Positions 27,196-45,953 of a stretch of 64,000 nucleotides of DNA are shown piece after piece. Position 1 is the stretch's first letter. Each line of letters begins with the position of its first letter. The translations under genes and the position numbers were made by a program. The notes under the pieces were generated by a model, which saw only the letters and a program-made list of their open reading frames with translations, was not told where the DNA came from and made no database searches. Origin of the DNA: Deltaproteobacteria bacterium (lineage in GTDB: Bacteria; Desulfobacterota; Desulfomonilia; UBA1062); contig JAHDRW010000028.1 of the NCBI GenBank assembly GCA_018433085.1, positions 4,804 through 68,803 of the forward strand. The letters run 5' to 3'.

Positions 27196-28878
27196 TCAGA
27201 CCATCACCGCCACCATGCCTCCTGCAGCCGCTGCCACGCCCGATACCAGAGCCGCGGCGAACACCCACCATGCAGCGGACGAGGCGGTTTTTCTCACTTC
27301 TTCGGCGTGGTAGAGGGCTGTTTCTTCCGCCTGCTGCACCCTGGTCTGCACTTCATCGCGCATTCTCTCGGCCCGTGCAATCACGTCGTCCCGGGTGTTT
27401 TCCACCTTGGAGACCATCCTCTCGGCATCTTCGTCACGCATGTTTGGGCTGCTCTGGAGAATCATATGCTTGATATCGTCACGGTCGATGCTCTTGAGCC
27501 GGTGAATGAGCGAGTCGGCCCCGGCCCGGGGATTGTGCAGCATGGTCTCGAAGTCGGCCTTGATGCCTTCGTAGTCGAGTTCGGGGTTTTCCGTAGATTC
27601 CAGGAAGCCCCGTGCTCTGCCCTCCATGCCTGCCTGGCTCTCCATGGTCGCCCCCCGGCCGGACTCTTTCGTTGACTGATAGCGGGACTTCAGATTGTTC
27701 ACCGTTCCCGCCACCATATCGACGACCCGACGGGCCTCGTTCTGGTCCATGTCCTTTCTCTGGGCCAGGATCGAGGTGATCGTGGAGCGGTCCATCTCGT
27801 TGAGCCGGGCGAGTATGGAGTCGACCCCTGCTTTCGGGTCGGAGACGAGCCTGTCGATATCGCGCTTGATCCCTTCGGGACTCAGCTCATCCTTGCCGGT
27901 TCTGGCCAGGTAGTCCTCGACCCGGTGCCGGTACTTCTCTGCGTCCTCGCGCGACATGCCTGCCATCCGCGCAGCCGCGTCCGCGATCTTCTCGGCCCTT
28001 TCCTTATCGGTGCGGGCCTCTTCACCCATGATGTCCCGGGCGGCCCCGGCCTGTTCCTTTGCCTGAGAAGCAGCGGCCCTGGCCATTCCCCCGGTGTGGA
28101 AGCGTGCAGTGAGGGTCTCCCGGTCCGGAGAGGCATGGATCTCGATCTCGGCGTTGTCGAGGATTCCCTCGATCTCTTTGCCCAACTGGCGATAGCTCGG
28201 TTTCATCTGGTCTACATAATTCTGAATGGTCTTTCTCACACCGATGTCACCGAACACCTCGCCGCGCACGACATCGATGATGCTGCGGGTCGTATCCGCC
28301 GCCTGCTTCTCCTCCGAGGTTCCGAGAAGTCCGGATGCCGTCGTGGAGACCGACCGGAAGCCTGACCTTGCCACGTCCATGAGCGATCCCACCATGGATG
28401 AGACTGCAGTCATCTCCAGGATCGCGGTAATGAGGTAGAAGAGGCCCCATATGGCGAGACCCAGGGTTATCCCTGCTACGGTGGTCAGTGCAATGCTGAA
28501 CTCCACCGCGAGCCATGCCGCGAAGAACAGGGATATGGCCGATGTGATAACAGCCCAGATGCCGAACGTCGTGTTTACGGTGCGCAGCTTCTCTTCCACC
28601 GGCTCTGTCTCTCCCTGCCGTTGCTGTTGTTGCCTTCCGCCGCTTGGCCCGACCCTTTTCCGCAACGATTCCAAGGGGCTGTGCATGGCGCTCAAGCCGA
28701 CCGCTGCAGAAAGGTTCGTCAGTATGAGCTGGAAGCCGAATGCCAGGATGATCCCTACCACCAGCGCGGTGATAAAGCTCGCCCCAGGAATCAGAAGGTC
28801 TGCCGGGAACGTCTCGACCTGGGCGAAAAGCGCTACCGGGACCAATGTCATGAGGAAGGTGAGAATGATTTTTCTCAT
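27196..28878 (-). CDS. Membrane protein with internal about 65-aa tandem repeats (unknown function)
   Basis: Signal peptide and N-terminal TM cluster. Repeats DELSPEGIKRDIDRLVSDPKAGVDSILARLNEMDRSTITSIL and ELDYEGIKADFETMLHNPRAGADSLIHRLKSIDRDDIKHMIL. C-terminal TM. RBS AGGAG. Confidence 0.55.
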   Translation of the reverse strand: MRKIILTFLMTLVPVALFAQVETFPADLLIPGASFITALVVGIILAFGFQLILTNLSAAVGLSAMHSPLESLRKRVGPSGGRQQQQRQGETEPVEEKLRTVNTTFGIWAVITSAISLFFAAWLAVEFSIALTTVAGITLGLAIWGLFYLITAILEMTAVSSMVGSLMDVARSGFRSVSTTASGLLGTSEEKQAADTTRSIIDVVRGEVFGDIGVRKTIQNYVDQMKPSYRQLGKEIEGILDNAEIEIHASPDRETLTARFHTGGMARAAASQAKEQAGAARDIMGEEARTDKERAEKIADAAARMAGMSREDAEKYRHRVEDYLARTGKDELSPEGIKRDIDRLVSDPKAGVDSILARLNEMDRSTITSILAQRKDMDQNEARRVVDMVAGTVNNLKSRYQSTKESGRGATMESQAGMEGRARGFLESTENPELDYEGIKADFETMLHNPRAGADSLIHRLKSIDRDDIKHMILQSSPNMRDEDAERMVSKVENTRDDVIARAERMRDEVQTRVQQAEETALYHAEEVRKTASSAAWWVFAAALVSGVAAAAGGMVAVMV

Positions 28879-29481
28879 GGCTTTTCTCCTTTTCATTCTT
28901 CCGGGCACGCTCGCCCGGGGTTATCTTTACGGACCCGGCCGGCTGTCAGGTTCTGGATACAGTCGGCCGGCCTTCAGCCGTTTATCGGGAACCTGCGCCG
29001 GGAGTCCGGGGAACCGCATATCCGTTCAAAAGCGGTTGTCCCTTCAGCGGGACGTCATAAGTCCGCCGACCCATGGCTTTCTAAAGGCAATGGTTTTTCA
29101 AAGGTTTTCTCTCGGCTTTTCGGTACTGTTCCCTCCGCACACCCGACCTGCTCCCCGCCTCGTCATGATGCCGTAGCGTCTCAGGCCGTTTTCTCTCGTT
29201 TCGGGGCCGGGGAAACCCGGTCCCATTACCCGGTCACGCACGCCTGCACACGGGGAATGCGCTGCATACACATATAATGGTGATCACCGCGGCGCTTATC
29301 CACCACACCAATGCATGCAATCATCGTTTTTTCAGGAATGGCGGATTTTTGGGGAAAAATGCGCCAATGTGCAGTCGGAAATACGGACAAGGAGGACGGG
29401 AGGCAACCCATGGGAAAGCCGGGAGCAGAGGGCTTGGGATGCAGCCGTGACAGGGCGCCTGCGGGAAAGAGTCGTGCGCCC

Positions 29482-30104: not shown

Positions 30105-30602
30105 GACGTTCTCCTGCTGACCCGGGAGAGGAACGGCCCGAACAGCGGGTTTCCCTCTTCAGCGGGCGGCCGGTTTTTTGATCCGGGAGAGGACGGCCTT
30201 TTCCGCTTACTTAAGGAAAAGGATAGGGGGCAAGAGCCAACTTTCAATACACTTATCGGACCACAGACCCTTTTCCCATCGCCGAGCGGCAGCCGTTCTT
30301 TCTTGAGCGAAGGCAGGGGGGACGGCCGTGCCCGGATCATTCATTTGGCCCGATTTATCACAATTTTGGCAGGAATGATCATATCTTTTCCCCTTAAACT
30401 TGTGGTTTCATGCCATACTGATCCTGTGCCCTGTTCAAGGCATCGTCGCCCCAGGAAATACTTCTCATCGGAGAAAAGAGAACGCCGGAGCAGGAATTGC
30501 TCGTTGCCGGTTTTTGCACCTTTTTTTCGGGTCTTCGTGGGGGAGCACCCGGATGGATTTTCACAAGGAAGAGAGTCATCCATGAGGAAAGGGGGTTTCT
30601 TT

Positions 30603-31940
30603 ATGTCTCTGAAACGTTTTCTGATCATTCTGGGGATTCTCGGCGCATTTTTCACCACAGAGGCCCGTGCACAGATCGACAATCTGACCAACATGAGCGC
30701 CGAATGGGTCCGTCTGGCAAACCGCAATGCCGCCACCGACGCCGCTGACATCGTGGTCTATAACCCGGCCGGCCTGGTGAGCCTCTCTGACGGGTTTCAC
30801 CTCAACATCTCGAACCAGAGCATGTTCCGCAGGCCGCAGCACGAGTTCGTCGATCCTGTCACAAGCACTACCGTGAGCTTCGAGCAGGACGACCCGGACT
30901 GGTTCGTTCCCAACGTCTACGCGGCTTACACAAAGGACCGGTGGTCGGTGTTCACCGGCGTCTACATCCCCGGCAACGGTGCAGCCTTGGACTATCCCGA
31001 TGGATCCATCACCACGCGCCTCATCGGGTTGGAGCTGATACAACAGATAAATCAGGAAATCTTTGATGCATTCGGCGTGGGGAACGCATACACGGCCCTG
31101 GCAAACGAAAGCATCGAGGCCAGCTCTCTGTATCTCACCGGGACCGCAGGGGGGACGTACCGGGTAACGGACATCGTTTCTCTCGCTGCAGGGGTCCGCT
31201 TCATACGGGCGGAAAATGACATTGAGGGCGAGCTGACCGTAGCCGGAGGGATACTGGGGGCAAACACTCCGGACCTGCCGTTTGTCGTGGACGTGGATCA
31301 GTCGGCCGACGGATGGGGATTCGTGTTGGGAATTCAGATGATTCCGGTGGAGGATCTGGTTCTTGCCCTGCGATATGAATCAGAGGTGAACCTGAATTTC
31401 GAGAACGACGTGAACGGCTCGGACAACCTGGGCCTGTTCATCGACGGAGACCGGAGCCATCGGGATTTTCCGGCCATGGTCGGCTTCGGGGCCTCCTATC
31501 GGTTCACGCCCGAGCTCAGGGGAGAGGCGGATTTCAACTGGTTTTTCCAGGAGGCTGCCGACTGGGGCAGGTCTGATACGGGCCGGGACATTTCGGACAT
31601 GGCGGGAGACGTCTGGAGCTGGGGGCTCTCGGCCGCCTACCAGGCGACAAGCGAGCTGGAGGTCAGTGCGGGATTCCTGTATACCGACCATCTCTGGGAC
31701 GACATGGACGGATATTTCCAGAGTGCTACCGGGGCCGTCGAGACCCTGTACTCGGACAACTGGAACCTCTCGACCGGCATCGGCTACCTGATCAGGCCGG
31801 GCGTCAAGGTGAATCTCGGCGTTGCATTCACGATCTGGGAGGACGAGACCATCTTCATCAACGCCGATCCGCTGATCATTCCGGTGAGGACCGAGAACAG
31901 CACCACGACCGTGGCCGTGGGCGTGGATCTCGCGTTCTGA
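30603..31940 (+). CDS. Outer-membrane beta-barrel transport protein (FadL/OmpP1/TodX-like)
   Basis: Signal peptide, alternating beta-strand pattern, C-terminal ...VAVGVDLAF aromatic terminus. 445 aa. RBS AAAGGGGG. Confidence 0.5.
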   Translation: MSLKRFLIILGILGAFFTTEARAQIDNLTNMSAEWVRLANRNAATDAADIVVYNPAGLVSLSDGFHLNISNQSMFRRPQHEFVDPVTSTTVSFEQDDPDWFVPNVYAAYTKDRWSVFTGVYIPGNGAALDYPDGSITTRLIGLELIQQINQEIFDAFGVGNAYTALANESIEASSLYLTGTAGGTYRVTDIVSLAAGVRFIRAENDIEGELTVAGGILGANTPDLPFVVDVDQSADGWGFVLGIQMIPVEDLVLALRYESEVNLNFENDVNGSDNLGLFIDGDRSHRDFPAMVGFGASYRFTPELRGEADFNWFFQEAADWGRSDTGRDISDMAGDVWSWGLSAAYQATSELEVSAGFLYTDHLWDDMDGYFQSATGAVETLYSDNWNLSTGIGYLIRPGVKVNLGVAFTIWEDETIFINADPLIIPVRTENSTTTVAVGVDLAF

Positions 31941-32010
31941 ACAGGATCGGCTGCCCGTCCTTTTCTGAAAGGGCATGACCATGGGCTATCCCGCGCGGGT
32001 TGCGGCCGCG

Positions 32011-33090
32011 TCAGCGCGTCCTGTCCGCGGGAGCTCCGGCAAAGCCCGCGAACAGCATTCCCAGCATCCTTCCCACGTCTTTGAGGATATCCGTGGTCAC
32101 CGCGTCCAGGTATGCGAGAGACCGGATGTCGGGTTCGCGGAAAAAGACCCGTACGGCATCGGCCGAGCACGCCCTTGTCCGGGCGGCCACGTCCGCGCCC
32201 CTGCCGGGATCGACGGATGAGTAGGCCTCGATGAGGCCAGGTCCGAACCTCCTGACCAGAAGGCGGAAGAGGGGGTTCAGACGCCTCCTGGCCCGGCGGA
32301 TATAGCCGTCGAGCTCAGCGTGCACGTCATCCCCCGACGCCCGGCCTTCCCCGGCCCCGGTGATCAGCGCATCGCCGAAGGGGGCGAACCCCTGGCGGAA
32401 CCGTTGCTCGCTGTACACCTCGTATCCGGTGTGGATCGCCGAGAGCATGTGCACCATTTTGCGGGCCGAGAATAGATGCCGGAGCAGAAAGCCTGTCGGC
32501 GCGGCCTTGACATGAAACGGATGCCCCAGATCGGCGAGATAGTGGGCCGCGCGCGACAGGAAGCGCCACCCCCAGTAGTGGTTTCCGATCTCGAAGGCCT
32601 TGTGCGCGAGCCGGGTGTGATACCGGAAAGATTCCGGCGCCATGCCGATGGTGAGGCCCGGTAGCCTGAACTGCATATGCCGCCACCCGTGGGAGCCGCC
32701 GGTGATCTTCTGATACGGGTGGAGCTCGAGGCCGCAGTCGGGCAGGAGATCGGGCTCGGTGCTGTAGATGACCAGGATCTTCCAGGGTTCGATGGACTTC
32801 TGCGCGGGAGGCTCTGCGCTGAACTCGCCGTTTCGCCGGGCATAGTCGAACGAGATGGACGGGTCGAGACTTCGGACCTCCCGGTACTCTTCCTTATAGA
32901 GATCCACGTGGTCCGGGTTGATGGGGAATCGGCTGTCATGGAGCCGCGGGTTCGGCATCACCTTCACCGGCTTCAAGTGCATGATCTCCGGTACGCCCAT
33001 GACGGCAAAATAGGTGATATACTCGTGGGAAAACCACGGCCCCCAGGCAGAGGGCATCCGCGGATCGTCGTGCAGGAAGCGCTCCGTCAT
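32011..33090 (-). CDS. Hypothetical protein (His-rich motifs, possibly metal-dependent hydrolase), last gene of the RLP operon
   Basis: 359 aa. No confident family. HYLADLGHPFH and HTGYEVY motifs. Confidence 0.35.
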   Translation of the reverse strand: MTERFLHDDPRMPSAWGPWFSHEYITYFAVMGVPEIMHLKPVKVMPNPRLHDSRFPINPDHVDLYKEEYREVRSLDPSISFDYARRNGEFSAEPPAQKSIEPWKILVIYSTEPDLLPDCGLELHPYQKITGGSHGWRHMQFRLPGLTIGMAPESFRYHTRLAHKAFEIGNHYWGWRFLSRAAHYLADLGHPFHVKAAPTGFLLRHLFSARKMVHMLSAIHTGYEVYSEQRFRQGFAPFGDALITGAGEGRASGDDVHAELDGYIRRARRRLNPLFRLLVRRFGPGLIEAYSSVDPGRGADVAARTRACSADAVRVFFREPDIRSLAYLDAVTTDILKDVGRMLGMLFAGFAGAPADRTR

Positions 33091-33167
33091 CCATTCGTCC
33101 TCTCGGCCCGGGCGTGCGCCGTGAGCACGGGCGCCCCCGGGTCCGCAAGCCGCCCGCGTGCCTCCCT

Positions 33168-34478
33168 CTATGAGATTTTGAACTCGGTCTTTTTCTGCCA
33201 GGTGCCGAGCGCAATGCCCAGTTCCTCGTGCTCCTTGGAGTACTCCTCGACGGGCACCCCCTGAAGCACGGCGTCGATGGCCTGGCGGAAGGCCTTCACG
33301 CCCGCCATGGGGCCCTTGGGATGGGCGTGGATGCCGCCGCCCGAGCCGATCATGATATCTTTGCCCAGGGAGTTGATGATGTCGGGTACGTTTGCCGGGG
33401 TGATACCGCCCGAGGGCATGGGCAGCACGGGCTTCAGATTGCCGAAGGGGTAGGTGAGATTGCGGCAGGTGGCCATGAAGCGGTCGTGCATGTAGATGCC
33501 CTTGCCGCCGAGCGAGAAGGGCAGCACGATGCTGTCCGCACCGCAGAGCCTCGGGATCTTGCCGAAGATGATGGACGAGGAGATGCCCTGGTACGGCGAC
33601 ATGAAGTACGCACCGCCCACGTCCATGTGGGCCAGGATGGGCACGTTGATCTCCGGGTCTTCGGCCAGGGCGCGCATGGCCTCGGGTCCCACGGCAAGGT
33701 AGTTGACCATCATGGCGTTGGCTCCCGCTTCGATGCAGCGCTTCGCCAGGTCGAACATCCTCGGCAGCCGGTCGGTCACGTTCACGGTATAGAGCGTGTG
33801 CTCGCCCGTTTCCTCAAAGACCTGCCGCTCGATCTCCATATAGGTCTTCACGCGCTCCACCGCGCCGTTGTAGCACATATTCGCGATGAGCTCGTCGTCC
33901 TTGATCACGTCGCAGCCGCCCATGGCCACCTCGCGGAAGAGCCTTGCGCCCACCTCCAGAGGGTAGCCGCTGCAGGGCTTTATCATGTTGTTCATGATGG
34001 GGCGGTTCTTCTCGATGCCTAAGGCCTCGTACCATCCGTCGATCCCGAAGCGCGGGCCCTGGTACTGCTCCAGGGTGACTTTCGGCATCCTCAGGTCCAG
34101 AAGCTTGAAATTGGGCACCAGCGAGATGTTCCCGATCGTGGCGGTGAGCAGCATGGGAAGCTGGTCCTCCACGTTGGCAGCCGGGAACGCGATCTGGACG
34201 ATGTACTGCCGCTCCCTGACGTCCTCGGGCAGCCCGTACTCGTGCGAAGGCGCCTCGTAGACGCCGATTACCTTGGCCACGTGCCTGGCCCTGACCTCGG
34301 GCGTCTCGCCCGGCACCGGCACCCAGGTGCCCGTGGTTTGCTCGATGGCCAGGATCTGGCCCATGAGCGACATGTCCATGGCCTTGTCGGCCTTGGCCCA
34401 GTAGGTGGCGATCACATGGTTTTCCATATCGACGCTCTCGGGTATGGCAATGGGTTTGTCCGCGAATGCATCCGTCAT
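33168..34478 (-). CDS. RuBisCO-like protein (RLP, form IV RuBisCO large-subunit homolog; not a carboxylase)
   Basis: GGCDVIKDDELIAN matches RuBisCO GGLDFTKDDEN (carbamyl-Lys, Asp, Glu retained). KPK is replaced by KPC. H327/R295 equivalents are substituted. PSGGI and GSGGGIHAHP loops are retained. RBS GAAGGAGGG. 436 aa. Confidence 0.8.
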   Translation of the reverse strand: MTDAFADKPIAIPESVDMENHVIATYWAKADKAMDMSLMGQILAIEQTTGTWVPVPGETPEVRARHVAKVIGVYEAPSHEYGLPEDVRERQYIVQIAFPAANVEDQLPMLLTATIGNISLVPNFKLLDLRMPKVTLEQYQGPRFGIDGWYEALGIEKNRPIMNNMIKPCSGYPLEVGARLFREVAMGGCDVIKDDELIANMCYNGAVERVKTYMEIERQVFEETGEHTLYTVNVTDRLPRMFDLAKRCIEAGANAMMVNYLAVGPEAMRALAEDPEINVPILAHMDVGGAYFMSPYQGISSSIIFGKIPRLCGADSIVLPFSLGGKGIYMHDRFMATCRNLTYPFGNLKPVLPMPSGGITPANVPDIINSLGKDIMIGSGGGIHAHPKGPMAGVKAFRQAIDAVLQGVPVEEYSKEHEELGIALGTWQKKTEFKIS

Positions 34479-34534
34479 TTTTTCACCCTCCTTCTTGTAA
34501 AAAACCGTGACTGATTTCGGTTCATTTATTTTTA

Positions 34535-35944
34535 TCATCCCCGGGGAATGAGTGAGAGCAGGTACTCCCATACCTCCAAAGTCCTGTTCAGGGCCTCGTC
34601 GTCGTGCTGCATGCACGTGTACATCCGGGTCCCTGCCAGGGTGCACAGCCCCTGGCCCAGGGTGACGGTCTGGTAATCGTCAGCGGCCTGCTTGCGCGCC
34701 ATGATCTGGGTGAAGGCGTCCGGGGAAGAGAGGTCCACGGCAAAGAACGCGGTGGTCACATAGTGCATGATGGGCCCGAAGTTATAGACAAAAAAGCCCA
34801 GGTCCTTCCGCGTGGCGAACAGATCGTTCATGGCCGCGGTGAGCCTGTCCGCGTAGGCGGTTGCCCTGCCTACGGCATCGTGCTCTTCCATGAGCCGTAA
34901 GGCGTGGTAGCAGGCCGCCGTGGAAATGGGATTGGCCGCCAGGGTTCCGCCGATATAGATCTTCTCGCCCATGCCCCCCTGGCAGACGCTCATCACGTCC
35001 TTCCTGCCGCCCACCGCGCCCGCCGAGGGGAACCCGTGGGCGATGATCTTGCCCAGGACGGTGAGATCGGGCGTGATGTTGAAGTATCTCTGCGCCCCGC
35101 CCATGTCCAGCCTGAAGCCGGTCACCACCTCGTCGAAGACCATCAGCGAGCCGTAGTGGTCGCACAGCTCGCGGATGCGCGTGTTCCACTCCGGGTGGAC
35201 CGGGTGGGTGCCGGACTCCCCGCCGATGGGCTCCACCATGACGGCGGCAACCCCGCCCTTGTCTGCATTGTCCTCGAACGCCTTTTCCAGGGTTTCGAAG
35301 TCGTTGGGCGGCACGTCGATGATGTGCGCATAGCTCTCGGAGGTGATGCCCCGGGAATTGAGCGGTCCGGTGCCCGGCACGTGCAGGGAATAGACCATCT
35401 GATCGGACCACCCGTGGTAGCTCCCGCCTATCTTGATGATCTTCTGCCTTCCCGTGAATGCCCGCGCGATCCTTACGGCCGCCATGTCCGCCTCGGTGCC
35501 GGACTGGAGGAAACGGACCATCTCGACACCCGGCATGTGCCGGATGATCTCGCCTGCGGCCAGGAGCTCGTATTCCGAGGTCAGCCCGGTGGCAGGGCCC
35601 TTCTCCCGGATGATCTCGATGATTTTTTCGTCCAGGGGGTCGAAGGCGTGGCCCAGGATGATGGGGGCGCCGCACATGAGGTAATCCACATACCCGTTGT
35701 TGTCCACGTCCCACATGCGGTAGCCTTTGGCCCGGTCCATGGCGATCGGGAAGGGCTTGTTCTGGCTCAGGTTGTGCTCCACGCCCCCGGGAATAAGTCC
35801 TTTGCCCCTCTCGAAGAGCTCCAGCGAGCGCCGGTTCCGCCGGTGATAGATCTCCCGTTCTCTGTGGAGCCTGTCATCGGGGATCGCCCTCACGGGGTGT
35901 GAGAGGATCTCTTTGTTCCGTCCTACGATTTCCTGGTATTCCAT
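34535..35944 (-). CDS. Class-III PLP aminotransferase, glutamate-1-semialdehyde 2,1-aminomutase-like
   Basis: MVFDEVVTGFR, LTVLGKIIAHGFPSAGAVGG (PLP lysine present). 469 aa with N-terminal extension. RBS GGAGG. Confidence 0.75.
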   Translation of the reverse strand: MEYQEIVGRNKEILSHPVRAIPDDRLHREREIYHRRNRRSLELFERGKGLIPGGVEHNLSQNKPFPIAMDRAKGYRMWDVDNNGYVDYLMCGAPIILGHAFDPLDEKIIEIIREKGPATGLTSEYELLAAGEIIRHMPGVEMVRFLQSGTEADMAAVRIARAFTGRQKIIKIGGSYHGWSDQMVYSLHVPGTGPLNSRGITSESYAHIIDVPPNDFETLEKAFEDNADKGGVAAVMVEPIGGESGTHPVHPEWNTRIRELCDHYGSLMVFDEVVTGFRLDMGGAQRYFNITPDLTVLGKIIAHGFPSAGAVGGRKDVMSVCQGGMGEKIYIGGTLAANPISTAACYHALRLMEEHDAVGRATAYADRLTAAMNDLFATRKDLGFFVYNFGPIMHYVTTAFFAVDLSSPDAFTQIMARKQAADDYQTVTLGQGLCTLAGTRMYTCMQHDDEALNRTLEVWEYLLSLIPRG

Positions 35945-37584
35945 TGATTTCCTCCATCCTCCTGTTTTGTTGTGGTGCCGGGGCCGGGTACCGTGCATAC
36001 CGGAGGTGTCTTTCTGTTCACGCGCGCGCAGATCTTTTTGTGGGACTGGTAGAGCTGAAGAAAATCAGCGAAGATCTCATCGTAAATCCTGCGGTTGCCA
36101 TGGTCGGGGAGATACTCCCTTTTGGCTCGGATATACCCGGGGATGTCCTCCGCCGTGATGTGGCCCAGTGCGATCGAGGCGAGGAAGGCCGCACCCCGGG
36201 CATTGGCATGCACCGGATCCGTCGCCTGGCGTATGGGTCTGTCCAGAACGTCGGAGAGGATCTGGGACCAGACGTCCGAGTTGGCGCCGCCGCCGATGAA
36301 GTTCAGGTATTCGAAGCGCCTGCCCATGAATCTCTCCACGGACTCAAGGAGCCATTTCTGGTTGAAGGCCACACCCTCGAACACGGCCCGGGCGATATCC
36401 TCGCGGGTGTTCTGAAGCGACAGGTTGAACAGCGAAGACCGGATGTGGCAGTCCTCCACCGGCGTGCGCTCGCCATAGAGCCAGGGGGTGAAAATCACGC
36501 CGTTTGCGCCAGCAGGGACCCGCGATACGATCCGGTCCAGGAACTTGAAGATGTCCGGGGCGTTTTCCTCCTGCATGAGCTCGTCCTTGTGGTACAGCAC
36601 ATTGTCCCTGAGCCAGGTCAGGCACTTGCCCGCGCACTCCTGCTCGTCCAGGATCATATAGCGCCCGGGCAGCGGGCTCGGGAACGATCCGAAGCTGTGG
36701 AAGAGATCGGTTTTCTTGAAGGGCACATGGGCGGATATCCAGGACGAGGTGCCGATGTAGAGGTGACCTTCGTAATCCCGCACCGCCCCTGACCCGACGC
36801 ATGCGGAATGCACGTCCGGGGTGCCGCCGATCACGGGCGTGCCGGGTTTGAGCCCCAGCTCGGCCGCCACCTCGTCCTTCACCGGTCCGAGCACGTCCAC
36901 GGCGCGGATCAGGTCCGGGAGCTTTTCGCGCTTAAGCCCTGCCATCTTCAGCAGTTTGTCGTGGTAGACCACCCGGGCGGGGTCGCGGTTGTCCGTGACC
37001 CAGTGGAGCAGGATGGAGTCGTAGGTGGCCGCGAACCTGCCCGTGAGGCAAAGGTTGATATAGTCCTTGGGTTCCAGGAACTTGTACGTTCGATCAAAGA
37101 TGCCCGGGCGCTCTTTCTTGATCCAGAGGATATGGGCCAGGGGGTCCTTTCCCGAGAGTGCCGGCGCCCCGCCGGTGAGCCTGAGCCAGGTAAGCGCCTT
37201 CCACAGCGGGTAGCCCCCGAACCGGGGCACTCCCTGGAGGATATCCTGAAGCGCTTCGCAGCCCCGGCAGTCCATCCAGGTGATGGCGTTCATGAGATTC
37301 CCGCCTTCTTTGTCCACCGGAACCGTGCCGGACCACTGGGTGGTCACGCTCACGGCCACGATATCGTCGGGAGACACCATGCCCCTGGCCAGCACCCTGC
37401 CGGACGTGGCCACAATGGCCTGCCACCAGAGCCCGGGGTCCTGTTCGGCGCCTCCGCCCGGAAGCAGGATCACGGGTATTGCCTGAAACTCGCTGTGGGC
37501 CACCTCTCCACGCACGGAAACAAGGGCGGCCTTGGGCCCGGACGTCCCCAGATCGATGGCCAGAACATGCTTGTCTTTGTTCAT
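35923..37584 (-). CDS. FGGY-family carbohydrate kinase (xylulo/ribulo/glycerol kinase-like)
   Basis: LAIDLGTSGPKAALV N-terminal ATPase motif, GGGANSDVWSQILSDVL C-terminal motif. The C-terminal tail overlaps the aminotransferase start and a repeated GC-rich element. Confidence 0.75.
   Translation of the reverse strand: MNKDKHVLAIDLGTSGPKAALVSVRGEVAHSEFQAIPVILLPGGGAEQDPGLWWQAIVATSGRVLARGMVSPDDIVAVSVTTQWSGTVPVDKEGGNLMNAITWMDCRGCEALQDILQGVPRFGGYPLWKALTWLRLTGGAPALSGKDPLAHILWIKKERPGIFDRTYKFLEPKDYINLCLTGRFAATYDSILLHWVTDNRDPARVVYHDKLLKMAGLKREKLPDLIRAVDVLGPVKDEVAAELGLKPGTPVIGGTPDVHSACVGSGAVRDYEGHLYIGTSSWISAHVPFKKTDLFHSFGSFPSPLPGRYMILDEQECAGKCLTWLRDNVLYHKDELMQEENAPDIFKFLDRIVSRVPAGANGVIFTPWLYGERTPVEDCHIRSSLFNLSLQNTREDIARAVFEGVAFNQKWLLESVERFMGRRFEYLNFIGGGANSDVWSQILSDVLDRPIRQATDPVHANARGAAFLASIALGHITAEDIPGYIRAKREYLPDHGNRRIYDEIFADFLQLYQSHKKICARVNRKTPPVCTVPGPGTTTKQEDGGNQWNTRKS
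35964..35985. repeat. Short GC-rich repeat element, copy 3 (TTGTTGTGGTGCCGGGGCCGGG)
   Basis: Lies immediately upstream of the aminotransferase RBS and within the 3' tail of the FGGY kinase ORF. Confidence 0.5.
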
Positions 37585-38173
37585 TACCGGCTACTCAAGA
37601 TATCCCTGCCCGGCGTACCGGGCAAATGCGCCATCCACCATGGTGCAGCGGGTACAGGTCTCATCGGCGGGGAAGTTTTTCACCCTTGTTCCCTGTTTCT
37701 GAACCAGAGACCTTCCTGCGATTTTACGATAAGACCGCCCAACCGAACACTTCATGATTTTACCGATAACCCGGAACACCAGGGGATGAATAGTGCCGAT
37801 CAGGTCAAAAACATGAGAAATCGGGCCAAAAGAGATCGTGGACCACCCATTGGCCGGTGCCCTGCCGCCTTGCATCTTTCGTCTGTTTGACTTGTACGGT
37901 AAATCATCGTAAAATTAACGACGTGCTCTTTTCGGGGACGGGTTCTCATTTAAGGTTGCTGGAACTTGAAGGTCACACCCTGCCTGCCGAGGTGGATATG
38001 GCGGGGTTTCCATTCGTTTGAAGCGGCGAATAAAACCGCTGCTTATGAGTCCTCTCCGCTGGTGGCCGCGAGTGCCGGCGACTCGCGAGAGTGCTTGATA
38101 CTTGGGGTCTCGCGGGTTGGCCGAGGGGATTGGCTGCCGCGCTTGACAGTATTGATTGAACGAGGTTTTAAGG

Positions 38174-39204
38174 TGAGGGAAAAGATTCCGTCGGACAGCG
38201 CCAGGTGGCTGGTGAGGGAGATGGCCTCGATGGGAATACCTCCCGATCGTATCCTGAAGGGCACGAACCTGCCGGAGGAATGGCTGCAGGACACGGGCGC
38301 GCTGATCACCCCTTCCCAGTACTTAAGCGTTGTGACCAATGCGCTTGAAGAGAGCGGGGATCCGGCCCTGGGGCTCCATGTGGGTCCGAGGCAGCAGCTG
38401 GGCGAGCTGGGTTTCTGGGGTTACGCCATCATCAGCAGTCCGACCCTGAGGGAGGCAAACCAGGTCGCCCTGCAGTTCTGGGAGCTGAACGGTTCCCTGG
38501 TCACCCTCGATTTCCGGGAGGGGCCGGACTATGTGGCCTGGCGGATTCTCCCCGCGTTTCCCATGGAAGACGAGCGTTTGTGGATTTTCGCCGTGGAAGA
38601 GCTTCTCACCACCTTCCATACCGCTGCCTCCTTTCTTACGAACCACGAGTTCCGCTATGCCCGGATCGATCTGTCGTACCCTGATCCCGGGCATGGGCTT
38701 AGGTATCGCGAGCTGTTTGAATGCCCGGTCTGTTTCGGATCGGAGGAGGATATATTCCGGGTGGTCGTTACCGATACGGACCGCCCCACCTTCACGGGCC
38801 ATCCCCGGATGGCGCTCGTCTGCCGGGAGCAGTGCCGCGAGCTCCAGGCCAGGCTCAGGTGGGGCGATGAGCTGACAGGGGCCATCCGGGAGATCATCAT
38901 CTCCTCCATGGGCCGGATTCCCCACCTGCCCGAGGTCGCCCGCAGGCTCGCCATGAGTCCCCGCACCCTGCGGAGGAGACTCCAGGGGCGCGGCACCACC
39001 TATCAGCACATCCTCGACGAGGTGAGGATCGAGCTGGCGAAGGAGTACCTGGCCTCCACGGGCTTGAGTGTCGACCAGATCGCGGGCCGGATCGGATTCA
39101 CCGAGGCTACCACCTTCCGCAGGGCGTTCAAGAAGTGGACCGGGAAGAACATCAGGGAGTTCCGGATGATTCGGGCGGAGCAGCAAAGGGCGGGCGTAAC
39201 CTGA
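38174..39204 (+). CDS. AraC/XylS-family transcriptional regulator
   Basis: C-terminal HTH_18 region (RLAMSPRTLRRRLQGRGTTYQHILDEVRIELAKEYL...FTEATTFRRAFKKWTG). Start uncertain: GTG 38174 or ATG 38221; ORF open from 37966. Divergent from the RLP operon. Confidence 0.65.
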
Positions 39205-39279
39205 CGCGCCGGGGCCAGGTTCGCCTGGAGAACAGCCGGCAGGCGCCGCCGCGGGTTCCCTCGATGGTCAAGGGAAATT

Positions 39280-40704
39280 CTATCCGGGGTTGCGGTCTCC
39301 GAGCCATTTGGAGACGATCCGGAAGCGGTCTGCTCCGGGTGCCCCTTTCAGAAAACCGCCCTCCTTCATGACCATCCTGACCTTGCTGACGACACCCAGA
39401 TCCTCCAGGGGGTTTCCCTCCACAGCGATCATGTCCGCGATCCTGCCCGGACCAATGGTGCCGATCCGGTCGCCCATGCCCAGGATCGAGGCGTTGCCCG
39501 ACGTGGCGAGCACGAGCACCTGTGCAGGGGTGAGGCCTGCGAGTTGGAGCCGTTTGAGCTCTTCGGCATAGAAAACCCCGAACAGGGCGGTGGGAAGGCC
39601 GCCCGAGTCGGTGCCCACGCCCACACGGCCTCCCGCATGGAGGATCCGGCCAACGTTGGCCAGGGCATGGGGGAACCCGCGAGCGATGAGGGGCAGATCG
39701 AAACAGGGTTTCGTCCGGTATGTGCTCTGCGGAGGCGGGTAAGGGTCTGTGCGGTAGTTGCGGATGTGCTGCCTCACCTGCCGTAAGGGTTCGGTCTCCA
39801 GGAAGGCCGGCCCTTGCTCGTCAAGCACGGCATCCACGGTTTGCCAGAGCTCGTCGCTCCCGACGTCCAGGCAGGCCAGCGTGGGGTTCAGAACCATTCC
39901 CCGCGCCGCAAACTCGACGGCAACCTCGTCGGGGATCTCCTCCAGCGGGCTGTGCTCGAAGGTGTCGACCCCCATGGACATGGCGTACTCCAGGTCTTCG
40001 AGCCCGCTGATGTGGCAGCACACCTTTCTGCCAAAGCGCCGGGCCGTGTCCATGACCGCCCGGAAGGTGTCCCGGTCGAGCACGGGAAGCTCGCCGCCTC
40101 CCAGCAGCCACGAGCGGTTCTGGCAGTAGACCTTGATCCACTGAGCGCCCCGCCGGATCATCTCGCCTGTCTGCCGGGCCGCCTCTTCGGGACTGCCGAC
40201 CCGTTCGGCGTACTGCCCGCCGAGAAAGGCCTTCACGAAATACCCGAACGAGGGCACCCAGTCCGGGCATCCCCCGGGTGCGGCGATGCACGAGTTGCAT
40301 CGGATGATCCGGGGCCCGGGGATGTCGCCGCTGTCGATCGCGGAGGCGAGACTCGAGAGCCTCCCGAGGAAGCCGCCGGCATCCCGCACCGTGGTGATGC
40401 CCGCCTCGATGCAAGCCCTGGCGTTGCGCTCGATCTGGCGCCCCATGGCAAAGAGTGCCCGGGGAGTCACCTGGTGCATGAAGGGGACGGTGATATGTAC
40501 GTGGGTGTCGATGAGACCGGGCATGAGCGTGAGCCCTCCGAGGTCCACCGGGGTGAATGCCCCGGCCCCGTCAGCCGCATTGCCTTTCTCCACGGCCTTG
40601 ATCTTCCCGTCCTCCACCAGCACCGATCTGTTATCCAGGAGTCTGCCCCGCACGCTGTCGAAGAGCCGGCAATTGAAGAGAACAAGCCGGTTGTCGAATT
40701 TCAT
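39280..40704 (-). CDS. Amidohydrolase-family metal-dependent hydrolase
   Basis: LMPGLIDTHVHI metal-binding HxH motif, TIM-barrel amidohydrolase pattern. RBS AGGAGG. Confidence 0.75.
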   Translation of the reverse strand: MKFDNRLVLFNCRLFDSVRGRLLDNRSVLVEDGKIKAVEKGNAADGAGAFTPVDLGGLTLMPGLIDTHVHITVPFMHQVTPRALFAMGRQIERNARACIEAGITTVRDAGGFLGRLSSLASAIDSGDIPGPRIIRCNSCIAAPGGCPDWVPSFGYFVKAFLGGQYAERVGSPEEAARQTGEMIRRGAQWIKVYCQNRSWLLGGGELPVLDRDTFRAVMDTARRFGRKVCCHISGLEDLEYAMSMGVDTFEHSPLEEIPDEVAVEFAARGMVLNPTLACLDVGSDELWQTVDAVLDEQGPAFLETEPLRQVRQHIRNYRTDPYPPPQSTYRTKPCFDLPLIARGFPHALANVGRILHAGGRVGVGTDSGGLPTALFGVFYAEELKRLQLAGLTPAQVLVLATSGNASILGMGDRIGTIGPGRIADMIAVEGNPLEDLGVVSKVRMVMKEGGFLKGAPGADRFRIVSKWLGDRNPG

Positions 40705-40782
40705 CCATCCTCCTGTGCGCCGGAAAAGATCCGTTCGGGAAAGTGCGCAGAGACAGGGTGCGAGGTCATTGTTCCCGGGCCC

Positions 40783-41985
40783 TCATGCCGGGAAGGCGGT
40801 CGTCTCTGTCAGACGTTTTCTCAGGTCGTCCTGCACGTTCCCGTCAACCGGCTCGATAACGACCCCCGGTACCCCGCCCGATATCCGGCAGGCATGCATG
40901 AGGACCCGGTCGTCCCAGAGCGTGTGGATGTCGTTCTTGGTGAATGTCTCGGAAAACAGGGCCTGGCCCATGCCGCCCAGCATGCTCACCACATAGCGGT
41001 TGCCCATTCTTGCGACCAGCCGGCTGGTGTCCAGGAACCCGTCCTTTTTTGAAGAGGGCATCACCTGCCTGTTTTCCAGCAGCCATGCCAGCGATACCAT
41101 GTCATGAGCGGGCAGCGACGACGACGCGATGACCAGCCCGTTTTGGGGCTCGGAGACATACCCGTCATCCGGCCCGAAGGTGGCGAGGATCTTGTCGGCA
41201 GCGGTCACGACCAGGCGCTGCTTTGTGCGCAGGGTTTCCACCGTGTTGCCTTCCGCGGTCTTTTCCTGGAGGGTGGACGCCTCCCGGTGATACTCCAGAC
41301 GCGTGTCGGTACGCCAGTAGCCGACCGCGGCCTTCAGGCCGAGGGTGCTGCCTGCCAACACGTGACGGGCGCATCTGGGCATGAGCACGATGTGATCCAT
41401 CTGTTTGAGGATGACGGGCATCATGATGCCGGTTCTCCAGTGCGACCCTGCCGCCGGAGCTTCCTCATAAAAGGCGTCCCAGCCCGCCTCTTCGAAGAAA
41501 TGCAGTTCTCCGCCCGCGGCAAGCACGGCCCGGGCCATGCCGGATGCCTCCATCAGGCTCCGCGAGCTGCCGGAGAGCTTTTCCGGAGAGAGCTTTACGT
41601 GCTCGATGCCTGACATGTCCCCCACCACCACCCGCCCGGCACCTCGGTCCTTGAGGAGCTCGATCATGGCCCCGATGGCTGCAGGGCTGGTGGTGGCCGG
41701 GTAGGGATTGCCGGAATTCAGGACCGGCTTGATAAACACGCTATCCCCCCTGGACAGCCAGGAGAAATCCGAAGCCGCCTCCGCGGCTGCGCGAACGGCG
41801 CGGCGGACAATTTCCTCACCGGATCCCCTGCTCACTCCCGCCAGGAACACGGTTGCATCCCTTCCCCGGGCAGGCACACCAAGGTCCGGTGCCTTGGCGC
41901 TGGTCTCCAGGGTTCCCCCTGCACATGAAGAAACAGCCGCGGCCGCCGAGCCTGCCACCAGTCTCAGAAAGTCTCTCCGTTTCAT
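40783..41985 (-). CDS. Tat-exported DUF362 domain protein
   Basis: Twin-arginine signal MKRRDFLRLVAGSAAAAV. DUF362-like central region. RBS GGAGGGGG. Confidence 0.55.
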   Translation of the reverse strand: MKRRDFLRLVAGSAAAAVSSCAGGTLETSAKAPDLGVPARGRDATVFLAGVSRGSGEEIVRRAVRAAAEAASDFSWLSRGDSVFIKPVLNSGNPYPATTSPAAIGAMIELLKDRGAGRVVVGDMSGIEHVKLSPEKLSGSSRSLMEASGMARAVLAAGGELHFFEEAGWDAFYEEAPAAGSHWRTGIMMPVILKQMDHIVLMPRCARHVLAGSTLGLKAAVGYWRTDTRLEYHREASTLQEKTAEGNTVETLRTKQRLVVTAADKILATFGPDDGYVSEPQNGLVIASSSLPAHDMVSLAWLLENRQVMPSSKKDGFLDTSRLVARMGNRYVVSMLGGMGQALFSETFTKNDIHTLWDDRVLMHACRISGGVPGVVIEPVDGNVQDDLRKRLTETTAFPA

Positions 41986-42472
41986 TGGGTCCCCCTCCAT
42001 GGCGCCGGCATTGTAATTTCTCTCATCTGTGCATACAGGCCCCTTATCCGCGAACCGGTCCCCGGGCATGTTTTTTCTCGGATGTCCGCAGCCAGGATGA
42101 CCGGTCTTTGCCGTTGGATCGGGTGAGCTCGTTTCGTTGCCGGCTGGATAATTATACTCCCTTCAGGCCTTTTCTCAAAACATGATTTTTCCGGTCCACT
42201 GTTCTGAAGATCCCCTTCCGGCCGGTCAACAGGGTTGCATGAGGAAACCGGAAGGCGCTTGTAGACTATCCGGGTGCATGCCCCGTCATAGTGGAAAAGA
42301 AACCCTGTACAAGCCCTGTTCTTTGTGATCGGATGCGTGATTACGGCCCTGAGAGGCATTAAGGGCCGGCCGGGACGGGCACAGGGTCCAGGGGGAAAGG
42401 AAAGCCCCCTGAGTTCGCGGCGGGAGAATCTGGAAAGAAACGGGACAAAAGGAAAGGGAACTCGAGGCGGGA

Positions 42473-43930
42473 ATGAAGAAAATCCTCATGGGAAGAAAAG
42501 AGAAGCACCGGACCCGGGCGTGCCTCCTCCTGTTGCCAGCGATTCTGTTGCTCGCCGGGTGCATGACCGTGGGGCCCGATTATATCGTTCCGGAGCCCGG
42601 TGCGCCTCCGGCGTGGAACGCCGGGCTCGGCGACCGCCTGATAACCGGGAAGACAGACCCGGAAGAGCTGGCGCGCTGGTGGGAGACCTTTGAGGACCCG
42701 GTGCTGGCCTCCCTGATGGACCGGGCGGTGAAGGGAAACCCGGACCTGAAGGAGGCGTCGGCCCGGGTTCGCGAGGCGCGAGCCAGGCGGGCCGCCGCAG
42801 GCGCAGGGATGTTCCCTGCGCTCGACTCCACGGCCTCCTTTCAGCGGAGCGGCGACAGCGAGTCGGCGCGCAACCTCTATTCAACGGGGTTCGATGCCCG
42901 GTGGGAGATCGACCTGTTCGGCGGGGTCCGCAGGTCCGTGGAGGCTGCGGGCGCAGATCTCCAGGCCGCGGGAGAGGCGATGAACGACACCCTGGTTAGC
43001 CTGACCGCCGAGGTGGCCCTGAACTATGTGGAGGTGCGGGCTTTTCAGGCCCGGTTGGAAACCGCCGAGGCGAACCTGGCTCTCCAGGAGGAGACCTACC
43101 GGCTTCAGCAGGCTCTCGTGCAGGCCGGGCTCAGCGATGGGCTCGCGCTCCAGCGGGCCCGGTCCAACCTGGAGAGCACCCGAGCCCTGGTCCCGTCTCT
43201 GCGCGCCTCTCTCGAAGGGGCCAAGAACCGGCTCGCCGTGCTCCTGGGCGAACGCCCCGGAGCGGTTCACGAAGAGCTCGCCCGGAGCAGGCCCGTGCCC
43301 ATGGTGCCCCCGGAGGTTTCCGTTGACGCCCCCGCCGACATCCTCAGGCGCAGGCCCGACGTGCGGCGTGCGGAGCGCGAGCTCGCGGCCCAGAGCGCGC
43401 GGGTGGGCGTGGCCATGGCGGATCTCTATCCCAGGATCACGCTGAACGGCTCCATCGGCCTGAGCGCCCTCTCCTCCGGGGATCTCCTCACGGCCGGAAG
43501 CCGGACCTTCGGCTACGGACCCCGCATCACTTTGCCCATCTTCTCCGCAGGCTCGATCCGTGCGGGGATCGATGCCCGGTCCGCGCTGCAGGAGCAGGCG
43601 CTTATCCGGTATGAGGCTGCGGTTCTAATCGCCCTGGAGGAGGTGGAGAACGCCCTCACCGCCTACGCGCAGGAACAGGTGCGGAGAGTCTCTCTCCAGG
43701 AATCCGCGCAGGCGGCTCAGGAAGCGGCTGAGCTCGCGGAATACCAGTACCGCTCAGGGATGGTCGATTTCACCGTTCTGCTCGACACCCAGCGCTCCCT
43801 TCTGTCCGCCCAGGACGAGCTGGCCCGGAACAGCGGCGCGCTCGCGTCCAACCTGGTGAGATTGTACAAGGCGCTCGGAGGCGGGTGGCCGGCACACGAG
43901 GCTGAAGAGTACGAAAGGGGAAAACCATGA
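42473..43930 (+). CDS. Efflux transporter outer membrane factor lipoprotein (NodT/OprM family)
   Basis: Lipobox LLAGC. Two OEP repeats with conserved Gly/Ala pattern. 485 aa. Confidence 0.8.
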   Translation: MKKILMGRKEKHRTRACLLLLPAILLLAGCMTVGPDYIVPEPGAPPAWNAGLGDRLITGKTDPEELARWWETFEDPVLASLMDRAVKGNPDLKEASARVREARARRAAAGAGMFPALDSTASFQRSGDSESARNLYSTGFDARWEIDLFGGVRRSVEAAGADLQAAGEAMNDTLVSLTAEVALNYVEVRAFQARLETAEANLALQEETYRLQQALVQAGLSDGLALQRARSNLESTRALVPSLRASLEGAKNRLAVLLGERPGAVHEELARSRPVPMVPPEVSVDAPADILRRRPDVRRAERELAAQSARVGVAMADLYPRITLNGSIGLSALSSGDLLTAGSRTFGYGPRITLPIFSAGSIRAGIDARSALQEQALIRYEAAVLIALEEVENALTAYAQEQVRRVSLQESAQAAQEAAELAEYQYRSGMVDFTVLLDTQRSLLSAQDELARNSGALASNLVRLYKALGGGWPAHEAEEYERGKP

Positions 43931-45228: not shown

Positions 45229-45953
45229 GTGCGACGACCCCTGAATCCATTGAAAGCCCTCTCATCCGGCTGGAGGGCATCACCAAGGTGTACGGCTCGG
45301 GCACTGCGGCGGTTCACGCGCTCAAGGGCGTGGACCTGAAGATCGACAAGGGTGAGTTCGTTGCCGTGATGGGCCCCAGCGGATCGGGCAAGTCCACCTG
45401 CATGAACATTCTGGGTTGCCTGGACACGCCCACCGCGGGCGCTTACCGGTTCAAGGGCGCGGATGTGGGCGTCCTGTCGCGCGACCAGCGGGCGCTCCTG
45501 CGCAGGACCTTTCTCGGCTTCGTTTTTCAGGGCTTCAATCTCCTCAGTCGCACCTCGGCCCTGGAAAATGTCGAGCTCCCCCTGATCTATCGCGGCATCC
45601 CGGCCAGGGAGCGGCATGCAAAGGCACGGGACGCGCTTAAGGCGGTGGGGCTCGACGGGTGGGAATACCACACCCCGGCCGAGCTCTCGGGCGGACAGCA
45701 GCAGCGGGTGGCCATCGCCCGGGCCATGGTGATCGAGCCCGAGGTGCTCATGGCGGACGAGCCTACCGGCAACCTGGACTCCACCAGGAGCCGCGAGATC
45801 ATGGATCTGCTCTGCTCCTTCAACAGGGACAGGGGGGTGACCATCGTCATGGTCACCCACGATGCCCGCATGGCCGGATATGCCGGGCGCATCATCCGGT
45901 TCCTGGACGGCCTCATCGATTCGGAGGAACCCGGCAGGAGACACGCCTTATGA
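45225..45953 (+). CDS. MacB-type ABC transporter ATP-binding protein
   Basis: GPSGSGKST Walker A, LSGGQQQRVAIARA signature, ADEPTGNLD Walker B, VTHD. Confidence 0.85.
   Translation: MSATTPESIESPLIRLEGITKVYGSGTAAVHALKGVDLKIDKGEFVAVMGPSGSGKSTCMNILGCLDTPTAGAYRFKGADVGVLSRDQRALLRRTFLGFVFQGFNLLSRTSALENVELPLIYRGIPARERHAKARDALKAVGLDGWEYHTPAELSGGQQQRVAIARAMVIEPEVLMADEPTGNLDSTRSREIMDLLCSFNRDRGVTIVMVTHDARMAGYAGRIIRFLDGLIDSEEPGRRHAL

Follow-up and report, generated by a model that had tools for sequence, protein, structure and literature searches.

A 64-kb stretch of contig JAHDRW010000028.1 from a Deltaproteobacteria bacterium (assembly GCA_018433085.1), hereafter the window, encodes an operon made up of an FGGY-family kinase, a class-III pyridoxal phosphate (PLP)-dependent aminotransferase, a RuBisCO-like protein (RLP) and a fourth protein of a new family, with a divergent AraC-type regulator upstream. 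The operon probably specifies an RLP-centred keto-phosphate pathway with new partner enzymes and a new substrate class. We tentatively read it, from sequence, as a possible system for the substrate-inducible catabolism of a sphingoid-type 2-amino-1,3-diol, most likely a long-chain base derived from sphingolipids. This reading draws on the linkage of the kinase's relatives to sphingosine-1-phosphate (S1P) lyase, on ceramidases, channels for hydrophobic substrates and lipid-type reductases, on the phospholipase C (PLC) fold predicted for the fourth protein and on the apolar character of the second-phosphate (P2) pocket of the RLP. An initial annotation of the window, made from its letters alone, had proposed a sugar or amino-sugar phosphate as the substrate. 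That is less likely in this context, which favours a sphingoid-type amino-alcohol, probably lipidic.

Both large-subunit domains, N-terminal and catalytic, were recognised in the RLP, placing it in the RuBisCO superfamily. It carries VIKDDE and IKPC motifs, with Met at the position of RuBisCO R295 and Val at that of H327. We read 19 canonical RuBisCO active-site positions off an alignment of 103 sequences, comprising family members, representatives of 50%-identity clusters drawn from a search of 1.84 billion proteins, two enolase sequences and spinach RbcL, whose numbering is used here. The signature of the window family at these positions, ETWNMKCKDEHM[A/G]VKSGGG, is essentially invariant among members that are 57-98% identical; at the H298 position, the window RLP has G and every other member A. 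True RuBisCOs read ETWN[IT]KKKDEHRHHKSGGG and YkrW/MtnW enolases G[TS]WKIK[MV]KDEHPSLSSGGG. Fourteen out of the 19 positions are identical to those of bona fide RuBisCO (forms I-III), including E60, T65, W66, N123, K175, K201, D203, E204, H294, K334, S379, G381 and G403/404, whereas T173M, K177C, R295M, H298A/G and H327V set the two apart. All residues that contact Mg, the first phosphate (P1) and O2/O3 are retained, and those of the P2 site (R295, H298 and H327) are replaced by Met, Gly/Ala and Val. With no second phosphate site left, the RLP cannot act on ribulose bisphosphate; moreover, unlike for RuBisCO, no phosphoribulokinase or AMP-pathway genes lie nearby. The protein is a form-IV RLP and not a canonical carboxylase, and the alignment bears out how its active site had first been described: IKDDE kept (K201/D203/E204), KPC in place of KPK, and equivalents of R295 and H327 absent.

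The closest characterised relative of the RLP is the MtnW/YkrW enolase of Bacillus subtilis and Geobacillus kaustophilus (2oek, 2zvi; about 37% identity), the G. kaustophilus structure 2oek being the nearest solved one (E 1e-73). They have in common the fold, the carbamylated-Lys/Asp/Glu Mg site, the P1 site and apolar replacements in the P2 site, and the window RLP, like MtnW, probably enolises a keto-phosphate with an apolar tail. MtnW models are its best curated match, yet they score below cut-off (PRK09549, 330 against 409 bits; TIGR03332, 293 against 514 bits). E60, N123 and K334, kept by the window family, are missing from MtnW. Lys98 of the G. kaustophilus enolase (FGK98LSL), reportedly the general base, aligns with Asn117 (IGN117ISL), which is Asn in all family members, so the window RLP is without the enolase base. 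In a neighbour-joining (NJ) tree of the 103 sequences, calculated without bootstrap, the YkrW clade has as its sister a large uncharacterised group, 30-43 representatives strong, in which the window family falls. The OiaX model gave 183 bits (cut-off 700), and similarity to 3qfw, presumably a DeepYkr-type RLP, is distant (111 bits). No mtnK, mtnA, mtnB, mtnX or mtnD neighbours were found among the window genes scanned with Pfam and NCBIfam or among the annotated conserved neighbour clusters of 80 related loci; the partners of the window RLP are instead an FGGY kinase, a class-III aminotransferase and a PLC-fold protein. The RLP is therefore not of the MtnW, DeepYkr or apiose type, given its sub-cut-off scores, its placement outside the YkrW clade, its distant similarity to 3qfw and OiaX, and surroundings devoid of mtn, apiose or tetronate genes. 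Databases give members of this family generic names or call them 'DK-MTP-1-P enolase'; the latter name is mistaken. The DeepYkr RLP of Rhodospirillum rubrum (a 5-methylthioribulose-1-phosphate 1,3-isomerase) and OiaC/OiaT/OiaX likewise enolise ketose-phosphate-like substrates in catabolic or salvage routes, and ketol isomerisation as in R. rubrum is one plausible outcome for the window RLP. Unlike these proteins, it has no cupin methylsulfurylase or DUF1537 neighbour, and its kinase is of the FGGY family. An RLP without an assigned function, mentioned in a single-cell study, is possibly related (PMC7325909).

The 80 loci were retrieved by a conservation scan that took one genome per GTDB species. 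All are from metagenome-assembled genomes (MAGs), their RLPs are 57-98% identical to that of the window, and they belong to Desulfomonilia, Syntrophales, Smithellaceae, Spirochaetota, Actinomycetota (Geothermincolia and relatives) and Chloroflexota. The window RLP is 98% identical to that of locus L007, its closest relative alongside L008. An FGGY kinase is encoded within 7 kb of the RLP in 70 out of 72 loci with enough upstream DNA, in four phyla, an arrangement far beyond chance. Neighbours were counted at the 50 loci whose flanks reached 3.5 kb or more in each direction: class-III aminotransferases were present at 28 and MFS transporters at 13, saccharopine-dehydrogenase-family, class II aldolase and PLC-fold genes at 16 each, and AraC regulators at 7. 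The kinase/PLP-enzyme/RLP neighbourhood is strongly conserved, and the genomes that carry the cluster, from four phyla, are those of uncultured anaerobes. A full-text literature search turned up no paper in which an RLP is accompanied by an FGGY kinase or an aminotransferase, or an FGGY kinase by S1P lyase, which agrees with the earlier suggestion that this is a novel RLP context.

The FGGY-RLP pairing is not peculiar to the window but common to the whole RLP superclade. Two loci represent sister RLP clades (about 45% identity). One (L136:6001-11837) has the order RLP, FGGY, class II aldolase, Rrf2 regulator and a different class-III aminotransferase, beside a Liv-type ABC importer; in the other (L137:1164-6694), Fe- and Zn-alcohol dehydrogenases surround RLP and FGGY and take the place of the aminotransferase, accompanied by a GntR regulator and a sugar ABC importer. 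Since the sister clades are again FGGY-linked, with an aminotransferase or dehydrogenases, the general logic of the superclade is a kinase, a carbonyl-generating enzyme and an RLP.

The window kinase matches FGGY_N (E 7e-40) and FGGY_C (E 7e-25) and is therefore a member of the FGGY family. The XylB model scored 270 bits on it, below the cut-off of 380, and identity to Escherichia coli XylB is 29%. It is 43-52% identical to kinases encoded directly upstream of S1P lyase. In an NJ tree with six E. coli FGGY sugar kinases as outgroup, the S1P-lyase-linked kinases, a second kinase of Spirochaetes (FGGY2) and the RLP-linked kinases of Desulfobacterota and Spirochaetota, that of the window included, formed one clade (bootstrap 94) from which the outgroup was excluded; FGGY2 and the RLP-linked kinases grouped with a bootstrap of 98. 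FGGY2 and an unambiguous S1P lyase orthologue (631 bits and E 1.5e-188 against 3mad) precede the RLP operon in three Spirochaetota genomes and two metagenome contigs, in the order FGGY2, S1P lyase, TetR, FGGY, class-III aminotransferase, RLP, PLC-like gene. A metagenome scan with the Spirochaetota S1P lyase retrieved 49 loci. FGGY lay directly upstream of the lyase, on the same strand and often abutting it, in about 28 of the 31 with upstream DNA, and the surroundings were otherwise unconserved. This module suggests a candidate non-canonical FGGY-type long-chain-base kinase.

The two-gene module recurs in metagenome loci L087-L122 (for example, L096:5472-8485 and L097:228-3283). The window kinase itself has a C-terminal extension (positions 35923-35998; 553 aa compared with about 535 aa in relatives), which overruns the aminotransferase gene by 22 nt.

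The aminotransferase has the class-III fold and the Schiff-base Lys (in GKIIAHG), and it falls outside the HemL equivalog, since HemL models stay below cut-off (TIGR00713, 303 against 527 bits; PRK00062, 310 against 398 bits). Its solved relatives include glutamate-1-semialdehyde (GSA) aminomutases, D-phenylglycine and beta-amino-acid transaminases and the aminotransferase domain of mycosubtilin synthase. At the 50 loci with full flanks, the aminotransferase occurs without the saccharopine-dehydrogenase-like gene at 28, the latter without the former at 16, both at none and neither at 6, three of which carry a more divergent class-III gene. Two loci, L035 and L036, have an identical layout with one gene exchanged for the other. 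The solved relatives of the saccharopine-dehydrogenase-like protein are carboxyspermidine and saccharopine dehydrogenases, which make or break C-N bonds via imines. The mutual exclusion of the two genes points to an amine/carbonyl interconversion step.

An aminotransferase orthologue with 66% identity occurs without RLP or FGGY at L143:9001-19410, among genes for a ferredoxin-like protein, an MFS transporter, a beta-keto-acid cleavage enzyme (BKACE), TetR, ChsH2-like/thiolase pairs and an enoyl-CoA hydratase. This setting, one of acyl-CoA-type catabolism, counts among the arguments for a sphingoid substrate.

No Pfam, NCBIfam or PDB sequence match was obtained for the fourth protein, nor did a profile search against PDB return anything at E<=10; its 199 detectable homologues are all unnamed. 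An AlphaFold model built on 26 homologues (pTM 0.85) predicts an all-alpha fold of the PLC/P1 type. The invariant motifs HYLADLGHPFH and H-x2-Y-E have a spacing that matches the zinc ligands of PC-PLC, which we take to be H118/D122/H128 and H142/E146. The protein does not belong to PF00882 or PF02265 and lacks the N-terminal Trp of a secreted mature enzyme: it has no signal peptide, and its conserved Trp16/19 is internal. The relationship to PLC rests on fold and motifs, the profile search having found no PDB match. What had been listed as an unknown His-rich protein is thus, more precisely, a new cytoplasmic family with a predicted tri-metal phosphoesterase fold (tri-zinc PLC / P1 nuclease).

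A domain scan of the window recovered all five genes where the initial annotation had placed them (Table 1), and the tight spacing noted there was confirmed: after the 22-nt overlap between the kinase and aminotransferase genes come gaps of 56 and 77 nt. Shine-Dalgarno sequences precede the starts of the aminotransferase, RLP, fourth-protein and AraC genes. The AraC gene is divergent, as described, but probably does not begin at 37966 (the longest open reading frame (ORF) being 37966-39204): the GTG at 38173 is the most likely start, since a ribosome-binding site (GAGG) is present there and the domain matches begin just downstream.

Table 1. Coordinates of the RLP operon and its adjoining features in the 64-kb window.
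Feature	Position	Strand	Domain matches and remarks
FGGY-family kinase, first gene of the operon	35923..37584	-	FGGY_N + FGGY_C
Class-III PLP aminotransferase, GSA-aminomutase-like	34535..35944	-	Aminotran_3, E 3e-50
RuBisCO-like protein (RLP), uncharacterised clade	33168..34478	-	PF00016 RuBisCO_large E 3e-42; PF02788 RuBisCO_large_N E 7e-09
Fourth protein, 359 aa, predicted zinc phospholipase C / S1-P1 nuclease fold	32011..33090	-	
AraC/XylS regulator, divergent	38173..39204	+	PF12625 Arabinose_bd E 2e-39; PF12833 HTH_18 E 1e-21
Divergent regulatory region, FGGY to AraC	37585..38172	.	holds deletion scar ~37641-37752
FadL/TodX-type outer-membrane channel, convergent with the operon	30582..31940	+	Toluene_X E 6e-17
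Amidohydrolase adjoining AraC, 474 aa	39280..40704	-	Amidohydro_1 E 2e-29

The AraC protein shows weak similarity, below cut-off in every case, to the same-subfamily regulators QhpR, CypR and GliR. AraC stands beside the operon in eight close relatives, and TetR replaces it in Smithellaceae and Spirochaetota. In blastn comparisons with L007:3029-4840 and L008:3031-4848, the window lacks about 1.8 kb between AraC and FGGY. The lost segment, replaced by about 110 nt, encodes an SDR protein and an HpnA/SdmB/OleD-like NAD-dependent reductase, the latter resembling enzymes that act on lipid secondary alcohols. Both genes occur in L007, L008 and L010; L009 also lacks the stretch. The promoter-proximal sequence on the AraC side is kept and is now fused to the kinase gene. 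A promoter and terminator scan of 31800-39400 gave results no better than shuffled sequences, with a single sigma-70-like match at 37887-37915.

The FadL-type protein, which has a signal-peptide-like N-terminus, is probably the uptake component. It also lies beside the cluster in L007, L008 and L011; at its place, other relatives carry a PF13557 protein (five loci) or another outer-membrane protein. The amidohydrolase and a DUF362 protein (39280-42069) are encoded downstream of AraC, on the opposite strand, and are syntenic in L007 and L009; the DUF362 protein has a twin-arginine-like signal (MKRRDFLRLVAGSAAAAV). The amidohydrolase is tentatively a candidate N-deacylase feeding the pathway. 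Four unrelated amidase types were found in or beside the cluster: Amidohydro_1 here, PF07969 in L022 and L144, PF04909 in L011 and two ceramidases in L001. They are compatible with N-deacylation of ceramide-like precursors. One Smithella locus has two neutral ceramidases, a DUF2147 gene and an MFS transporter immediately upstream.

At several Dehalococcoidia loci (L082:4460-6150, L077, L078, L069 and L070), PlsY and a radical-SAM gene lie immediately upstream of FGGY-RLP, and an acetyl-CoA hydrolase/transferase gene lies downstream of the aminotransferase. The arrangement may reflect either synteny within the lineage or a functional tie to lipids.

On the sphingoid-base reading, the compound would enter via the FadL-type channel and be sensed by the AraC protein. 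The FGGY kinase is proposed to phosphorylate the C1 hydroxyl of a sphingoid-type amino-diol, or of the 2-oxo compound derived from it, and the class-III PLP enzyme (in other phyla, the saccharopine-dehydrogenase-like protein) would turn the C2 amine into a ketone, before or after phosphorylation. The resulting 2-oxo-3-hydroxyalkyl 1-phosphate would have the CH2OP-CO-CHOH head found in ribulose bisphosphate and methylthioribulose-1-phosphate. The RLP would hold its phosphate in the conserved P1 site and its alkyl tail in the former, now apolar, P2 site, and the Mg2+/carbamylated-Lys centre would abstract the C3 proton to give a 2,3-enediolate. This might then undergo ketol isomerisation, or tautomerisation of a 2,3-diketone if a reductase had oxidised C3; phosphate elimination, or carboxylation and cleavage (with low probability), are other conceivable fates. 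Where a class II aldolase is present, cleavage would probably follow, and a FucA-like aldolase acting on 4-hydroxylated bases could give dihydroxyacetone phosphate (DHAP) and a fatty aldehyde. The PLC-fold protein, a candidate phosphoesterase, would hydrolyse a phosphoester, either freeing the base from a lyso-sphingophospholipid beforehand (head-group release) or stripping the phosphate at the end.

Several observations weigh against a sphingoid substrate. No S1P lyase, ceramidase, class II aldolase, MFS transporter or saccharopine-dehydrogenase-like gene is present in the window, nor is any gene for processing fatty aldehydes or fatty acids. S1P lyase accompanies the clusters of relatives in Spirochaetota only, and the ceramidase adjacency is weak evidence because it was seen in one Smithella species only. 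The RLP-linked kinases of Actinomycetota and Chloroflexota form a separate FGGY clade (31-37% identity), joint monophyly of all kinases reached a bootstrap of only 54, and the loci of these phyla show no lipid-uptake genes. To our knowledge, no FGGY kinase acts on a lipid substrate. Since L136 and L137 adjoin Liv-type and sugar ABC importers, the superclade as a whole handles small hydrophilic compounds and, given that the sister clades import these, a long chain cannot be deduced from the apolar P2 site. The comparisons are based on MAGs, NJ trees and heuristic ORF calling.

The importers and alcohol dehydrogenases beside the sister RLPs would fit with catabolism of a small hydrophilic amino-polyol or amino-sugar. 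On that view an amino-sugar or alditol, N-acetylated or free, would lose its acyl group, receive a phosphate from the FGGY kinase and become a ketose phosphate by transamination, to be isomerised by the RLP and split by a FucA-like aldolase into DHAP and an aldehyde. FGGY kinases are sugar and polyol kinases, the best models for this one being XylB and GntK; the class II aldolase of 16 out of 50 loci is FucA-like; the amidohydrolases could be NagA-like deacetylases; L014 contains a GH1 glycosidase; and the Actinomycetota and Chloroflexota loci have no lipid-related neighbours. We nevertheless consider this route unlikely, as it leaves unexplained the FGGY-S1P-lyase module and the place of the window kinase in that clade, as well as the ceramidases, the FadL and PF13557 channels, the OleD/HpnA-like reductase and the PLC-fold protein. 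Nor do we know of an amino-sugar pathway that combines a GSA-aminomutase-like transaminase with an RLP, and the literature search yielded none. A cassette running in the opposite direction, in which the RLP rearranges a ketose phosphate made by the kinase, which the PLP enzyme (or, reductively, the saccharopine-dehydrogenase-like enzyme) then aminates to an amino-polyol phosphate for a lipid head group, a cofactor or a natural product, would exploit the reversibility of transaminases and saccharopine-dehydrogenase-family enzymes. The aminotransferase does resemble the biosynthetic GntE (262 bits), and in some Dehalococcoidia the cluster is flanked by PlsY and a radical-SAM gene. We judge such a role very improbable: additional genes for tailoring, ligation or export are absent, the cluster keeps company with uptake channels, ceramidases, amidases and AraC or TetR regulators of the ligand-sensing kind, and the relatives of the kinase pair with a degradative lyase.

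Salvage of a methionine-type or 5-deoxy-sugar compound in anaerobes, with the kinase acting on a 5-methylthio- or 5-deoxy-pentulose, the RLP as MtnW, the aldolase homologue as MtnB, the PLC-fold protein as the MtnX phosphatase and the aminotransferase making the amino acid, has the merit that the enzyme types of the Bacillus mtn pathway are mirrored by the kinase, RLP, phosphoesterase, aldolase-family protein and aminotransferase. DK-MTP-1-P enolases are the nearest characterised relatives of the RLP, and JGI auto-annotation uses that name for family members. The active site, however, speaks against it (Asn in every member at the Lys98 position; E60 and K334 kept, unlike in YkrW), as do the position of the RLP outside the YkrW clade and its scores below both MtnW cut-offs. 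No MtnA-, MtnK-, MtnP-, MtnN-, MtnD- or MtnX-type family occurs among the annotated neighbour clusters or the scanned window genes; FucA models outscore MtnB models on the aldolase homologue, which the window lacks; the aminotransferase belongs to class III and gives way to a dehydrogenase in other phyla; and inducible regulators, outer-membrane channels and transporters point to catabolism of an external substrate. We regard salvage as extremely unlikely. Two further candidates were rejected. In one, the transaminase and RLP would process phosphoethanolamine, the product of S1P lyase, through phosphoglycolaldehyde and, with an aldolase, to a pentulose bisphosphate; this fails since the RLP has no second phosphate site and a lyase is missing from most loci, which have a kinase of their own; a hopanoid side chain, considered because of the HpnA-like match, is less consistent with the S1P-lyase linkage.

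E60, N123 and K334, which handle CO2 and carboxylate in RuBisCO and are lost from MtnW, are kept throughout the window family, and on these grounds the RLP might be conceived as a C-C-cleaving, possibly CO2-using enzyme that converts a lipid ketol phosphate into 3-phosphoglycerate and a fatty acid. After enolisation, CO2 (or a proton) would be added at C2 and the C2-C3 bond then cleaved in the manner of RuBisCO. The K177C, T173M and H327V substitutions weaken this idea, and we consider it a long shot. If it were true, a whole sphingoid base could be fed into glycolysis and beta-oxidation without O2.

Canonical sphingoid degradation shares with the proposed sphingoid route an ATP-dependent C1 phosphorylation followed by a PLP enzyme at C2; unlike it, the window has no lyase but a transaminase and an RLP instead. 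The long-chain-base kinases known so far are members of the diacylglycerol-kinase family rather than of FGGY, and we know of no degradation route for sphingoid bases in strict anaerobes. The divergent AraC protein of the window may find a parallel, by analogy, in SphR, the divergent AraC-family sphingosine sensor of the Pseudomonas aeruginosa sphingosine regulon (SphR, SphA, SphBCD, CerN; PMC3900636, PMC11398299). As in that regulon, some relatives of the window carry a meta-pathway-phenol-degradation-type channel or a ceramidase. SphA is likened to meta-pathway phenol-degradation proteins (PMC3900636), and PF13557 appears to be its family, going by that description. The Pseudomonas route relies on a periplasmic oxidoreductase, a cytochrome c and a threonine-aldolase-like protein and so depends on respiration, whereas the window route would be cytoplasmic, ATP- and PLP-dependent and operate in strict anaerobes. 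The product of sphingosine metabolism in P. aeruginosa is still unknown (PMC11398299).

Most RLP clades have no assigned function, and that of the window is large, with at least 80 species-level genomes in four phyla; its tight conservation and clear set of partner enzymes make it directly testable with purified proteins. Should the sphingoid-base reading hold, the kinase would be a non-canonical long-chain-base kinase of the FGGY type, the transaminase and RLP would together offer an alternative to S1P lyase, and syntrophic and sediment anaerobes would have a way of recycling the sphingolipids of Bacteroidota and of eukaryotic detritus. The retention of RuBisCO CO2-site residues by an enzyme that would act on a monophosphate with an apolar tail also bears on the origin of carboxylase chemistry in the superfamily.

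Elsewhere in the window, a 570-aa ORF without a Pfam match (27196-28908, minus strand) overlaps opposite-strand ORFs at 28451-29176 (plus strand). SbcD-like (Metallophos) and SbcC-like (AAA_27, 1190 aa) proteins, encoded at 17949-22699, are ordinary DNA-repair components unrelated to the operon. At 42473-47161 lies a candidate tripartite efflux operon: MacB_PCD and FtsX domains were confirmed at 45659-47161, and the two ORFs upstream of this MacB-like gene were read, from their sequence, as a putative TolC/NodT-like outer-membrane factor and a MacA/HlyD-like adaptor.

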